Assembly (NCBI GenBank): GCA_963845185.1
Contig: CAWJRG010000001.1
Coordinates: 270,806-334,805, forward strand
Source of the DNA: an uncultured bacterium
Lineage (GTDB): Bacteria > Oederibacteriota > PGYV01 > CAWJRG01
Length of the DNA: 64,000 nucleotides
Direction of reading: 5' to 3'
The first letter of the stretch is position 1. Each line of letters starts with the position of its first letter. Of this stretch, positions 50,940 through 56,516 are shown piece after piece. The notes beneath the pieces are model-generated. The model was not told where the DNA came from. It saw nothing but the letters and a program-made list of their open reading frames with translations, and did no database searches. A program made the translations under genes and the position numbers.

Positions 50940-51425
50940 TCAAGAATACATATCCACCAACATGCCCCTGATTTTATCAAGCGCAGACAATATTTCTATT
51001 GTTTCGGCGTGCTGATTTAAAATCTTCTGTGTGAGTTTTTCAAGTTCTACATCGACCATTTCAACCATGATGTAAACTTTTTTTCGTTTTATCATGAACT
51101 TGGAACTATCCGAAACTTTCACGCTGTATATTTTTTGTATCGCCTGTTTCATAAAATCTTTGACAAGGGTCTTGTACTTGTTAAGTTCGTCAAAAGTCCT
51201 GTGTTCCGCTAGTATCTTTGCCTGTTGGGAAAGTTCTTCTATGAGTTGGTCCAACGACTTTTTTACCTGTTCCTCGGTCGCATCGTCCAACTCTTTTAAA
51301 AAATTCATCGGATTCACTTTATCCCTTGCTATTTCGTGCGGAGCTCTTTTTGAACTCGACTTTTTTGCCTTGCCTATATTCAATTTATTGTCGCCGTATT
51401 GCCCTGACGGCTCATATATTTTCAT
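50940..51425 (-). CDS. YaaR/DUF327 family protein
   Basis: YK.LVKDF, VD.ELE.L, IRGMLVDMYS; start re-called to ATG 51425 behind AAGGAG. Confidence 0.75.
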   Translation of the reverse strand: MKIYEPSGQYGDNKLNIGKAKKSSSKRAPHEIARDKVNPMNFLKELDDATEEQVKKSLDQLIEELSQQAKILAEHRTFDELNKYKTLVKDFMKQAIQKIYSVKVSDSSKFMIKRKKVYIMVEMVDVELEKLTQKILNQHAETIEILSALDKIRGMLVDMYS

Positions 51426-51534
51426 GATTAAACTCTCCTTTTTAATGAATTTGTCCCGGGACTTGCCAGGGCCTTCCCTTTCCCTTCTCTGAAAAGGCTT
51501 GTCAAGCACAAATCCAAGTATAAGGGCTAAAATG

Positions 51535-51656
51535 TTAATTAACCTTCTCTTCGCCGCAGTTCTTTTCACCCGGCATTATAACAAATCAAATTAAGGCCCT
51601 CTAACCTCTCCCACAGCCCAGAAGATTTACTGACTCAGGGGAAAACAGAGCGGCCT
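51535..51656 (-). ncRNA. Predicted bridge/seek RNA of the IS element
   Basis: Two stem-internal-loop-stem units; first loop carries TTTCCCCT and TGGGAGA matching the reconstructed target. Confidence 0.6.
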
Positions 51657-52676
51657 ATAAGTATATTTTTTATATATCCTTTCTTCATAACCACGATTTT
51701 CTTTGAGCATTTTAAATATTATTTCTGCCATGTGCCTTGCAACTGCTATTATTGCCTTGTTTGAACCTCTGCGGCTTTTTACGTTCAAGTATATTGATTT
51801 AAAATACAAAGAACTTCTTACCGCTGTCCAAGCTGCTTCTACAAACGCACATTTTAAATGTTTGTTTGCCTGCCTTATTATCGGACCTCTATGTATTGTT
51901 TTATTACTCGCATATTCGCTTGGAACCAATCCGGCATATGACGCTAATCGTTTTGCCTTAGAGAATCTATTTATATCAACTATTTCAAACGCCACTACCT
52001 TTGAAAGAACTTCTCCAAATCCAGGTACCGTCTTTATTATTTCCACATATCTATCTTTCCCTGTCATTTCTTTTGCAAGTTTTTCTGTTGCCTTTATTCC
52101 TGTATTAAGTTCGTCCACCAAATGCATCTCGAGGTTCAGCAATTCACGTTCGCTTTTTACCAGTTCGACTCTTTCTATTGTGTCCCTGCCTTTTTTCCCA
52201 AACAAATCGCTGTGTACGCTTGTATCTATATGGTTCCTTGTCAATAACTGGTGCACCCTATTTTTTACAGCTGTCCGTGTGCTCACCAGGAATTGCCTCT
52301 CTCTTAATATGTTCTTCTTAAGCCTTATTTCCTTCGACGGCACATATACTTCCGGTATTAAATTTGCTCTCAACAAATGGGCCAATATCTCCGAATCCCT
52401 TACATCGTTTTTTATCTGGCTTTCCGCTATCGCTCTCAGCTTCTGCGCATGCGCCAATTTTGTCTTTACGCCGAGTTCCTCCAAAAGGTCGTACACTACT
52501 CCCCAGCAGTACGTTGTCTCAATTACCGCTTCGCATTCCTCTCCAATCTCAGCCAGCATTTTCTTAAAATCCTCTGTCCTGTTTGAAAGAGCTCCTCTAA
52601 ATCTGACTTGACCTTCTTTTGTCACCGCTGTAACATAAGACACGTTCTTGTGCACGTCCACACCAAGATACAACAT
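51627..52676 (-). CDS. IS110-family transposase (recombinase)
   Basis: GVDVHK, IE, KNDVRD (DEDD RuvC-like); TVPGFG, SYAGLVPSEYAS, A.IAVAR. Confidence 0.95.
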   Translation of the reverse strand: MLYLGVDVHKNVSYVTAVTKEGQVRFRGALSNRTEDFKKMLAEIGEECEAVIETTYCWGVVYDLLEELGVKTKLAHAQKLRAIAESQIKNDVRDSEILAHLLRANLIPEVYVPSKEIRLKKNILRERQFLVSTRTAVKNRVHQLLTRNHIDTSVHSDLFGKKGRDTIERVELVKSERELLNLEMHLVDELNTGIKATEKLAKEMTGKDRYVEIIKTVPGFGEVLSKVVAFEIVDINRFSKAKRLASYAGLVPSEYASNKTIHRGPIIRQANKHLKCAFVEAAWTAVRSSLYFKSIYLNVKSRRGSNKAIIAVARHMAEIIFKMLKENRGYEERIYKKYTYRPLCFPLSQ

Positions 52677-52797
52677 ACGGCACCTCCTAGGTTTTTAATG
52701 TTGTGGGTGCTAACACACGCCACGTTACCATTATACCTGGGGGTGCCTTCTTTTCATATTACCTCTCCCATAAAGGCAGAGAGCATAACTTCCGGTT

Positions 52798-53391
52798 TTA
52801 TTTTAATTTTATCATTTTTTCTATGTATTTTCCTATAATATCAAACTCAATATTAACAATAGTCCCTATTTTATAGTACTTTATCACTGTGCTGTTTAAA
52901 GTCTCCGGGATTATGGAAACCTGAAAGCTGTTGCCCTTTACATTATATGCAGTAAGGCTTATGCCGTCGGCTGCAACCGAGCCTTTCTCAACCACATACC
53001 TGATAAATTCCCTTGGAAACGCGACTTCCAGTATCATATAGGCTGCTTTTTTTATAATCCTTCTTACTTTTCCGGTACAATCAATATGTCCCTGAACTAT
53101 GTGCCCGCTTAAAAGAGCGTCTGCGGTTAGTGGAAATTCTATATTTACCTTGTCCCCGTATTTCAGTATTTTTAAATTTGTTTTTTTTACAGTCTCTTCT
53201 GTCGCATCCGCAGAAAACTCTTTTTTTTCAGTAATTTTTGCCGCTGTAAGGCATGTCCCGTTTACCGCTATGCTCATACCAACGCACGGGTTTATTATTT
53301 CCTTATTCAGGGCAATACATATCCTTTTCTGCTTGTTCCCGTTGCTCATGCTTTTTATTGTGCCTGTATCGTATATTATACCGCTAAACAT
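52798..53391 (-). CDS. ribE: Riboflavin synthase (alpha chain)
   Basis: MFSGII, SIAVNGTCLT, GHIVQGHID, KGSVA.DGISLT. Confidence 0.95.
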   Translation of the reverse strand: MFSGIIYDTGTIKSMSNGNKQKRICIALNKEIINPCVGMSIAVNGTCLTAAKITEKKEFSADATEETVKKTNLKILKYGDKVNIEFPLTADALLSGHIVQGHIDCTGKVRRIIKKAAYMILEVAFPREFIRYVVEKGSVAADGISLTAYNVKGNSFQVSIIPETLNSTVIKYYKIGTIVNIEFDIIGKYIEKMIKLK

Positions 53392-54472
53392 ATTTTAATT
53401 TTCCCTTTATCAAAATGTCGCTTCCGATCTTTTGTGTCTCTACATCCGCCAATTTATAGACTTTTTTTAGGTTCTTTATTCCCAGCGGTCCTACAAAAGG
53501 TATTCCATCGTTGCCTATTATTTTATTCGCAATATAAAAATTGGCCTCATCCGCATACTCTGACCTTAAAAAAGAAGTGTGCACTTTGCTGCCGCCCTCT
53601 ATGAGAATACTCCGGATCCCTTTTTCCCACAAAGTATTTATGACAAAATCTTCGGTTATCTTCCTGTTCCTAGTGTAAATTATATTAATTCCTTTTTTAG
53701 CTAGCATCATTGCCTTGCTTTTATGCATTGATGCTGTAAAAATATAAATATCCTGTGGCAGCGCATATCTAAAAATATTTGCGTCAGGGCTTATCCTGCC
53801 CTTTGTGTCAAGTATTACTTTTTTTATCTTTTTCTCGCGGTCTATCCTACAGTCAAGGTATGGATTGTCCTTTTTTATTGTGTTTGTTCCGGTAAGTATT
53901 GCGTCCACTTCCCTACGCAGGAGCTGGTCGTGCATCCTGGACTCTTCGCTTGTTATCCATTTTGACGTTCCGTCTGCTAGAGCTATTTTCCCGTCGATTG
54001 ATATACCGGCTTTTAATATCATGTATGGTTTTCTCTTTAAGTGGTTTTTAATAAATATTCTGTTGAGTTTTTCAGCATCTTTTTTCAACAGGCCTACGTC
54101 CACTTTTATTCCGTGCTTACGCAATTTCGCTATGCCTTTTCCGTTTACTATCGGGTTCGGATCCTGCATGGCGGCGACAACCCTTTTTATGCCGTACTTT
54201 ATTATTTTTGCCGTGCACGGAGGCGTTTTACCAAAATGGTCGCACGGCTCAATGTTTATATACAAAGTCGCTCCTTTTGCGCCATACCTGATTTTTTTCA
54301 GGGCTTCTGCTTCAGCATGCAGCCACCCTGCCCTTTTGTGATAGCCTGTGCTTATAATGCGATTGTTTTTGACGATAACGCACCCGACGAGCGGGTTTGG
54401 CGAGGTATGGCCTATTGCTTTTTTTGCCAGTTCTATTGCTCTTTGCATATAATAAATATCTTTTTCTTGCAT
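53384..54472 (-). CDS. ribD: Riboflavin deaminase/reductase
   Basis: PNPLVG, HAE, EPC.H.GKTPPC, SKWIT, IEGG. Confidence 0.96.
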   Translation of the reverse strand: MQEKDIYYMQRAIELAKKAIGHTSPNPLVGCVIVKNNRIISTGYHKRAGWLHAEAEALKKIRYGAKGATLYINIEPCDHFGKTPPCTAKIIKYGIKRVVAAMQDPNPIVNGKGIAKLRKHGIKVDVGLLKKDAEKLNRIFIKNHLKRKPYMILKAGISIDGKIALADGTSKWITSEESRMHDQLLRREVDAILTGTNTIKKDNPYLDCRIDREKKIKKVILDTKGRISPDANIFRYALPQDIYIFTASMHKSKAMMLAKKGINIIYTRNRKITEDFVINTLWEKGIRSILIEGGSKVHTSFLRSEYADEANFYIANKIIGNDGIPFVGPLGIKNLKKVYKLADVETQKIGSDILIKGKLKYV

Positions 54473-54795: not shown

Positions 54796-55245
54796 TTATT
54801 TTCTCTTTTTTCCCTGCAATGATTTTTTCCATTTCTTATAATTATTCTTGATTTTTTGTTTTTCTTTAGGCGACATTTCTTTCCACCTATTATAATTTTG
54901 TCTTACTTTTTCTTTTTCTTCCGGCGTCAACTTTTTCCAGCTTTCGTTCGCTTTTATTATTTTTTGCTTTTTTTCAGGTGGCATACTTCTAAATCTTTTA
55001 TATTTATCTAAAATTTCTTTTCTTTTTTTAGGTGGAATTTTTTTCCATTTTTTATGAACCTCGCGTACACGCTGCTTTTCTTCGGGCGATAAATTTTTCC
55101 ATTTTTCAAGAGATTTTTTATACTCTTCTTTATCGTCCGCCCCGTAGGGGGGTGCTTGCTGGGCTTTTATAAAAGACATGCCTAAAATAAAAAATATTAT
55201 TGTCGTAAATAATATAATTCCTTTTGTATTCCTATTCATCGTCAT
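54796..55245 (-). CDS. DUF3106-like exported protein
   Basis: Signal/TM then repeated W..L.PEEK..+ units; ECF operon context. Confidence 0.7.
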   Translation of the reverse strand: MTMNRNTKGIILFTTIIFFILGMSFIKAQQAPPYGADDKEEYKKSLEKWKNLSPEEKQRVREVHKKWKKIPPKKRKEILDKYKRFRSMPPEKKQKIIKANESWKKLTPEEKEKVRQNYNRWKEMSPKEKQKIKNNYKKWKKSLQGKKRK

Positions 55246-55493
55246 TCTCCATTCACAACTGTACTATTATTTTCATTTACATAAGAATTATAATTTTCAA
55301 AAAAATCTAGCTGCAGAATCAGTTCGTAGTTTTCAAATAAGTCCAGATTCCCAATTATTTCCTGCTCGTCTTTTTCAGATATGGATGATATATCAGTTTC
55401 CGTGCCTCCCTTTTCATTCTCGCTTGTTTCCGCAAAAATACCCAAGCTGAAAATTAAAACAAAGCCTGATATTAAAAAAAATATTCTTTCCAT
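55242..55493 (-). CDS. Small acidic exported/membrane protein
   Basis: Hydrophobic N-terminus; I..NLDLFEN.ELI..LD motif also present in the anti-sigma C-terminus. Confidence 0.55.
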   Translation of the reverse strand: MERIFFLISGFVLIFSLGIFAETSENEKGGTETDISSISEKDEQEIIGNLDLFENYELILQLDFFENYNSYVNENNSTVVNGE

Positions 55494-55495
55494 TA

Positions 55496-55951
55496 TTACG
55501 TATTGTCCCCGTTATCAGCAATATGTTCCAGAATCTCAAGTTCCTCAATAACATCGATATTTTGAAACATGTCAAGATTTTTAACTATTTCTTTTTCATA
55601 CATAATATGCCTGATATAAGCAAAAGCGCTGACTCCTATAAAAAATAATATAATAAAAGTGTAGCCCAACCTGCGTATCACAATATTTGATCGTAACAAT
55701 TCCAAGAGACCTTTTTTTTCGGTTTCAAGTTTTTTCATTACAATCTGCCGTTGAATATGCCAGACGTCTTCAGAAAAATCAACTTTCATATCTTGAAAAA
55801 GAGATATTATTTTCCTTTGTTCCTCAACTACAAGCCTACATTTTTCACATGAATTAATATGTGCTTCAAATTCAGCTTTTAAGGTTTCTGGCATTTCATT
55901 ATAAACATATTCTGTCAGTTTTTCCTCTGTTGATTTGCACTTTTCATCCAT
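55496..55951 (-). CDS. Zinc-finger (zf-HC2) anti-sigma factor
   Basis: HINSCEKC (HxxxCxxC), single TM, follows ECF sigma. Confidence 0.85.
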   Translation of the reverse strand: MDEKCKSTEEKLTEYVYNEMPETLKAEFEAHINSCEKCRLVVEEQRKIISLFQDMKVDFSEDVWHIQRQIVMKKLETEKKGLLELLRSNIVIRRLGYTFIILFFIGVSAFAYIRHIMYEKEIVKNLDMFQNIDVIEELEILEHIADNGDNT

Positions 55952-56516
55952 TGTTTCTTCCTCTTATTTTTATTTTTATTTTTTCCATTGCCCTGCTTAA
56001 ATGCGATTTCACCGTACCGTCTGATATATTAAAAAAATTTGCGATTTCTTTTATCGCTAATCCTTCCATATTTTTTAATACAAATACTTGCTTTTGGATA
56101 TTGGTCAATTCCACCATCGCCTTCTTAATATCATCTTTTAAAAACTTTCTTTCGGCATCTTCCTCAATATTAATAAGATCTTTTATCTCAAACTTATTTT
56201 CCTCGTTTTCACCAGCAGTTTCCGACAAAAGTATCGACTTATCGTGGTGTTTGTCCCTTCTCTTAAAGTCATAAAATGTATTCATCACAACCCTATAAAG
56301 GTATGTTGTAAAAGAACTTTCTTCTCTGAATTGATTGATATTTTTTACCAACTTTACAAAAACTTCCTGCGATATATCCCATGCTTTATCGTAATCCATT
56401 ACCAGTCCATAAGCTATGTTATAAACTCTTTTTTGATGTTTTTTTATTAACTCCTCTATTACTTCTTTTTTCCCTTGCTTTATATCACTGATTAAATCTT
56501 TGTCTTCTTTTTCCAT
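55944..56516 (-). CDS. ECF sigma factor
   Basis: D.SQEVF, SSFTTYLYR, EIA....S.GTVKSHLSRA. Confidence 0.92.
   Translation of the reverse strand: MEKEDKDLISDIKQGKKEVIEELIKKHQKRVYNIAYGLVMDYDKAWDISQEVFVKLVKNINQFREESSFTTYLYRVVMNTFYDFKRRDKHHDKSILLSETAGENEENKFEIKDLINIEEDAERKFLKDDIKKAMVELTNIQKQVFVLKNMEGLAIKEIANFFNISDGTVKSHLSRAMEKIKIKIRGRNNG

Follow-up and report, generated by a model that had tools for sequence, protein, structure and literature searches.

An apparently intact IS1111-type insertion sequence, probably RNA-guided, at BoxC-like sites in an Oederibacteriota genome

IS621 (Durrant et al., 2024, PMC11208160; Hiraizumi et al., 2024, PMC11208158) has a CT core and a bridge RNA in its left end, with two loops whose left and right guides are about 7+2 and 5+2 nt long and a handshake dinucleotide that matches the donor. 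The IS1111-group elements ISEc11, ISKpn4 and ISPa11 (Siddiquee et al., 2024, PMC11187229) have a long stretch of non-coding DNA on the 3' side of the transposase gene, and the seekRNA elements of the same paper combine subterminal inverted repeats (usually 11–13 bp and near-perfect in the IS1111 group) with 7- and 3-bp terminal extensions, a junction promoter, a 330–350 aa protein and no target duplication; in the IS1111 order the top-strand guide lies 5' of the bottom-strand guide, and ISPa11 targets REP repeats. Durrant et al. (PMC11208160) give 7–17 bp for the inverted repeats. ISPpu9 and ISPpu10 of Pseudomonas putida (PMC12288879; bioRxiv 10.64898/2026.03.19.712850) also target repeats and have an AG boundary dinucleotide, a 5'-UTR structure that blocks transposase translation, a native internal promoter and an antisense Asr9-like RNA; for ISPpu10 a structural target gate is reported. 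The BoxC repeat, also called PIT or TMECO, has the consensus CCCTCNCCC-loop-GGGNGAGGG-loop-GGGNGAGGG according to Holder et al. (2015, PMC4666352), who noted no association with mobile elements in E. coli.

The element is a member of the IS110 superfamily with an IS1111-type layout, and one copy lies in the window, by which we mean the whole 64,000-nt stretch of DNA that was analyzed; coordinates are window positions unless a contig is named. Superfamily features include an N-terminal DEDD RuvC domain together with a PF02371 domain that has the conserved serine, site- and orientation-specific insertion at a short core without duplication (all five sites share (G/A)GGAG-AG-GG in a single orientation) and, at the sequence level, a non-coding RNA with loops matching target and donor. 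The IS1111-type organization noted in the preliminary description is borne out by about 140 nt of non-coding DNA after the stop codon vs. about 87 before the start, by the guide order, and by terminal extensions of 7 bp on the left (AG+GTAAT) and 3 bp on the right (AGA), a count that includes in the repeat an A/T pair which many homologues retain but which has become G in this element. The element resembles the IS1111 group further in its protein length and in a junction promoter, which is here predicted, and it has repeat targeting in common with ISPa11. It has the CT core, two-loop guide plan and donor-matching handshake of IS621, but its RNA lies 3' and overlaps the ORF. With ISPpu9 and ISPpu10 it shares the AG boundary, repeat targeting, a leader structure over the transposase ribosome-binding site (where blocking would be the presumed role) and an internal promoter, in this case a candidate.

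The recombinase of 349 aa is encoded on the minus strand at 51627–52676 and scores above the cut-offs of PF01548, PF02371 and NF033542 (221.5 bits for the last, cut-off 140). Residues D7, E53, D91, D94 and S257 are intact and invariant in 20/20 aligned sequences; they are the positional counterparts of the catalytic D11, E60, D102, D105 and S241 of IS621 (PMC11208158). The C-terminal motif GLVPSEYASN has S-N in place of the S-G of the group motif GL-P----S(t)G. Other database proteins are at most 73% identical, and the named insertion sequences in a 60-row plasmid sample are about 22–25% identical over the full length, although a named element closer than those in this sample may exist. The match to IS621 is remote and confined to the C-terminal part (E 1.8e-7). 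In a small tree (32 rows with long branches, IS1111 itself and ISEc11 left out) the transposase groups into a clade of 21 (95/92 support) distinct from that of ISKpn2/ISShdy1. Among 99 genomes of the phylum, five, the element's own included, have a homologue at E 1e-40 or better. A scan of genome contigs with the single protein returned no homologue, and an alignment-based scan did find homologues. Two unrelated IS110-family transposases (about 28% identity) are encoded in the same genome at C9:363013-363996 and C6:73849-74844.

Five full, near-identical copies and one fragment are present in the genome. Examining other copies had been proposed as a check on the ends, and both ends recur in the four further full copies, with (G/A)GGAGAGGTAATATG at each of the five left junctions and TTTTCAGAGAAGGG at each right junction. 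Three of these copies are identical to the window copy over 1,282 nt, so that four identical copies and intact catalytic residues agree with the intactness suggested in the preliminary description; the remaining full copy has two single-base indels and a broken frame. That copy (L017, G000 C9:95266-96547) splits a protein of about 1,600 aa that contains three long internal repeats and linkers rich in Thr; C9 encodes many paralogues of this protein. The fragment (L018, G000 C10:481955-482186) is a 92%-identical left end that adjoins a BoxC-like hairpin and represents an older insertion. In the window, the element sits between the co-oriented genes for riboflavin synthase (PF00677, minus strand, 52798–53391) and a DUF327 protein (minus strand, 50940–51425), the latter followed by ribBA (50883–49660), in a ribD-ribE-DUF327-ribBA run at 50940–54472, with RibD domains upstream. 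A terminator scan found none within the element, so read-through to ribBA may persist; in the same scan no outward hybrid promoter was seen at the right junction. A single run at 54796–56516 encodes an ECF sigma factor, a zf-HC2 anti-sigma factor, a small protein and a DUF3106 protein. Contig sets from three DNA sequencing runs matched inner pieces of the element only and contained neither a junction nor an empty site, and a search for the orthologous empty ribE-DUF327 site, in which 10 of 41 relatives' genomes matched the DNA, and these weakly, did not find it.

The element has an AG core, which reads CT on the opposite strand, at 52763–52764 on the left, where the element starts, and at 51485–51484 on the right. 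This register, which agrees with the 7+3 bp extension rule of IS1111 (PMC11187229), sets the element at 52764–51486 on the minus strand, 1,279 bp in length. The preliminary description, whose quoted junction strings are in place (left 52774–52750, right 51505–51478), had taken the core as the 4-bp GAGA, which gives the target GGGAGAAGGG and a promoter spacer of 16. GAGA is indeed directly repeated at the two junctions in every one of the five copies, because GAG closes the target and GAGA closes the right end of the element, but this reading is refuted by the copy that splits a gene: excising 1,279 nt at C9:95266 (AG register) yields an open frame of 1,598 aa that, across the junction, aligns with internal repeats of the same protein, whereas excising 1,278 nt (GAGA register) gives a stop four codons past the junction. 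The homologue scan yielded 162 loci, 67 of them with a usable inverted repeat found without assuming AG and representing 35 distinct elements; AG stands at +5,+6 past the right repeat in 30/35 of these and at the matching left position in 29/35. A 4-nt repeat in the GAGA register was found in only 1 of 27 elements (47/162 loci usable), the window's own. At 4/4 scorable sites, the AG reconstruction is one substitution closer to the BoxC consensus, and the genome contains GGGAGAGGG 53 times vs. nine for GGGAGAAGGG. One unoccupied paralogue of the C10 site speaks for the GAGA register, reading GGGAGAAGGGG as it predicts, whereas two others read GGGAGAGGGG. We therefore rejected a GAGA core, which is hardly credible given the frame test, the position of AG in homologues, the rarity of the repeat and the BoxC fit. 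The same one-base register error displaced the target reconstructed earlier, TGGGAGAAGGGAAA; with the AG core, the empty site in the window reads TGGGAG-AG-GGAAA and the empty target GGGAG-AG-GGG. The preferred target suggested earlier, about TGGGAGAGGGGAAA, agrees with the AG register, but its leading T is found at only one of the five sites.

The left subterminal inverted repeat, TGAAAAG (52750–52756, minus strand), is a 7-bp perfect match to 51496–51490, shorter than is usual in the IS1111 group; over 14 positions the repeats agree at 8, and in homologues at up to 14/14. The right repeat CTTTTCA and the terminal GAGA occupy 51486–51496 of the minus strand, 51486 being the element end. Flanking host DNA on the left supplies GGGAG (52765–52769, minus strand), an arm of a decayed BoxC-like hairpin, and on the right the core and target half GGAAAGG (51477–51485, minus strand). 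The left half is GGGAG at 4/5 sites, identical to the 3' target guide, and AGGAG at the fifth.

Together the guides predict the target GGGAG-AG-GGGAAAA; over its inner 8 positions, each of the five sites agrees at 7 or 8. Occupancy declines with mismatch, from 3/10 perfect sites to 2/137 with one mismatch (p = 0.002) and 0/954 with two. A BoxC-like target had been inferred in the preliminary description, and indeed two sites are near-perfect BoxC repeats (0 and 1 substitutions, with the second loop relaxed to 1–4 nt), two are decayed hairpins (5 substitutions at the window's own site, 6 at the other) and one is in a gene. In the host genome, the BoxC consensus is matched strictly at 6 places, with a relaxed loop at 16 and nearly at 36. 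Since the guide fits a BoxC arm and BoxC holds most of the perfect matches in the genome, insertions are mostly intergenic. At hairpin sites, G is third after the core in 3/4 occupied vs. 6/43 unoccupied cases (p = 0.02). None of a second BoxC subfamily, with CCCTTCCCCC...GGGGGAAGG arms (e.g., in C5, C6 and C9), is occupied by the element.

The earlier suggestion that the specificity might be new did not hold. BoxC specificity is already known from Durrant et al. (2024, PMC11208160), at the same base and with near-identical guides: according to their supplementary files 4–5, some IS621 orthologues target CCC-CT-CTCCC in BoxC, with the bridge RNA guides TTCCCCT and GGGAGAG. Supplementary file 5 lists IS621-orthologue targets (5,485 according to the figure legend) and contains CCCCTCTCCC 46 times; in the 30 matches listed, the 31-mers are centered on the same CT. 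File 4 couples several such targets with bridge RNAs carrying TTCCCCT and GGGAGAG. These targets were found in the supplement, and no paper linking BoxC to IS110 or bridge RNA was among the main-text matches listed. As the proteins are only remotely related, the BoxC guides that the element shares with IS621 orthologues are probably convergent.

An alignment of 23 3' regions, hand-picked from the 162 loci, gave a consensus of two hairpins with internal loops, in keeping with the two stem-loop-stem units proposed earlier. Two-sided changes occur in 17 of the 20 stem pairs, as high a number being reached in 0/500 shuffles, and 92% of cells pair, vs. 36–53% in slid controls. The target-binding hairpin (51594–51656, minus strand) overlaps the last 10 codons of the ORF and, by co-variation with the flanks, presents a 5' guide TTTTCCC-CT (51645–51637) and a 3' guide GGGAG-AG (51612–51606), followed by the handshake GT (51605–51604), which matches the donor in homologues. 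The donor-binding hairpin (51539–51590, minus strand) has the 5' guide TGTTAT (51583–51578) and the 3' guide AGAGA-AG (51550–51544), then the dinucleotide GT. All loop strings quoted in the preliminary description are in place (TGGGAGA at 51613–51607, TTTCCCCT at 51644–51637, AGAGA at 51550–51546, TGTTAT at 51583–51578). On its own, the RNA of the window copy has a modest fold (z −1.8 and −2.2), since the target guides complement each other and are paired together, closing the loop, in the minimum-free-energy (MFE) structure. Rfam returned no match at E up to 1.

The proposal of loops that recognize target and donor gains support from the homologues, in which the guides co-vary with each element's own flanks and ends, although kinship among the rows, and the selection by hand of 23 rows out of 162 loci, make the permutation counts overstate significance. 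Against the left flank, the 3' target guide agrees at 94/105 positions (21 rows; permutation mean 33.9, max 58), and against the right flank the 5' target guide agrees at 86/140 (20 rows; mean 41.6, max 72). On the donor side, the 5' guide matches the left end at 79/126 (mean 60.9, max 77) and the 3' guide the right end at 80/80 in 20 homologues (mean 61.8), with GAGA copied by the guide. The target-loop handshake agrees with the donor at 32/42 (mean 23.6; 1/5000 permutations as high), and the donor-loop handshake shows no co-variation with the target (15/40 vs. a null of 14.9). The outer right flank fits the 5' target guide loosely, with 3–6 of 7 matches, a fit that requires shifting the guide by one base against the structural alignment (22 vs. 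19 of 35). In a looser, word-based comparison, the left flank plus AG had a match of at least 7 nt in the element's own RNA region in 20/27 cases, vs. 42/702 cross pairs. In a relative of which seven copies were compared, the 6+4 spacing is retained and a TG core is written in both loops in the same register.

This TG-core relative, from genome G073 (L192, L196, L199, L202, L204, L205 and L206), is an instance of natural core reprogramming. The right flank of one G073 copy continues identically to the element's own RNA region, possibly through self-insertion into its own guide or a rearrangement. The ORF tail that overlaps the RNA is not conserved, and the tails of close relatives are translations of the same RNA stem; the C-termini of P0001 and P0004, RPLCYPLS and GRSVSPLA, resemble translations of C-rich guides, hinting that these closest homologues also target G-rich sites. 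In distant homologues from Rhizobiales, Bdellovibrionota, Verrucomicrobiota and others (L077, L106, L111, L127, L134, L169 and L172; 37–39% identity), the AG core ends a Shine-Dalgarno-like left flank (mostly AAAGG-AG) and an ATG lies 5–7 nt inside the right flank, which points to a clade whose members insert between ribosome-binding site and start codon. Such insertion is an IS900-like habit.

Joining the ends as a circle would create a promoter from TTGACA (51500–51505, minus strand) and TAATAT (52756–52761, minus strand), the latter overlapping the left terminal extension GTAATA (52762–52757). Both hexamers of this predicted promoter are as first described, and the spacing, previously put at 16, is 17 nt. 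Of 27 elements 22 were scored, and 11 of the 12 that reached 9/12 or more have this 17-nt spacing, a further point in favor of the AG register. The GGCACC and GGTGCC strings earlier proposed to form a stem over the ribosome-binding site (52747–52742 and 52684–52679) close a hairpin of about 70 nt (52679–52747, minus strand; z −5.16, 0/200 shuffles) that covers the Shine-Dalgarno (SD) sequence AGGAGG (52688–52683) and may control translation, as ISPpu9 translation is blocked by its 5'-UTR (PMC12288879). Inside this hairpin is an internal promoter candidate, ATGAAA-16-TATAAT (TATAAT at 52735–52730; 10/12), from which a transcript would be devoid of the anti-SD arm, leaving the SD half free. The SD is paired in 14/22 homologue leaders vs. 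8/22 shuffled controls, and an internal TAnnAT is present in 17/22, counted without a chance control. Read-through can provide RNA for excision in IS621 (PMC13626964). Circle-junction or read-through transcripts of the present element would carry the anti-SD arm and could serve mainly as guide RNA, and the internal promoter could yield translatable mRNA. If true, this split would overturn the common view that transposase is made from the junction promoter. It is part of a wider reading that we regard as doubtful, in which a deep, uncatalogued clade with a 3' RNA independently converged on the BoxC nucleotide used by IS621 orthologues and may divide its products by promoter choice.

In all likelihood the element is an autonomous, intact IS110-superfamily insertion sequence of IS1111-type layout, guided by RNA to GGGAG-AG-GGG(A/T) and moving through a circle without target duplication. 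Its ends, core, target, copy number, RNA structure and guide–flank covariation are read directly from the genomes compared. By analogy with published work on IS621 and ISEc11, which is the basis for expecting RNA expression, circle formation, promoter activity and catalysis, an RNA encoded by the last part of the transposase gene and the non-coding DNA 3' of it would bind the recombinase, its first loop pairing with both strands of the target and its second with the joined element ends (AGAGA-AG-GTAATA). The element would exit as a circle, probably by copy-out, which two preprints favor over cut-out and which would suit five near-identical copies. The circle would create the TTGACA-17-TAATAT promoter and recombine into new sites at the 2-bp AG/CT core, again without duplication.

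The MFE pairing of the two target guides, the S-N motif, the frameshifted copy and the 92%-identical fragment could each belong to an inactive relic with a non-functional RNA, for example one whose self-complementary guides collapse the target loop. We consider this very improbable, since four identical copies lie at unrelated sites, the catalytic residues are all intact, and IS621 orthologues have the same self-complementary guide pair; the element appears instead to have been active recently. For ISPpu10, a structural gate in addition to RNA pairing has been reported (bioRxiv 10.64898/2026.03.19.712850), and here an upstream complementary arm of at least 7/9 is present at 4/5 occupied sites, as would be expected if a BoxC hairpin or triplex formed a second gate. 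Hairpins are, however, also found at 65/142 unoccupied sites with at most one mismatch (Fisher p = 0.15, with little power at five occupied sites), and one copy lies in coding sequence without the arm (2/9). Such a gate thus seems unlikely to us, and target selection appears to be mainly by sequence, with one copy at a chance match within a gene.

The element, from a poorly catalogued clade, is a new instance of a known mechanism, which it leaves unchanged, and of a known target choice. It represents a compact, apparently active programmable recombinase on a branch far from the characterized ones, and since five natural insertions, along with relatives reprogrammed in nature, define its ends, core and four guides, it is ready for testing as an additional genome-editing orthologue. 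The finding also suggests that BoxC repeats are a shared landing site for unrelated RNA-guided elements.
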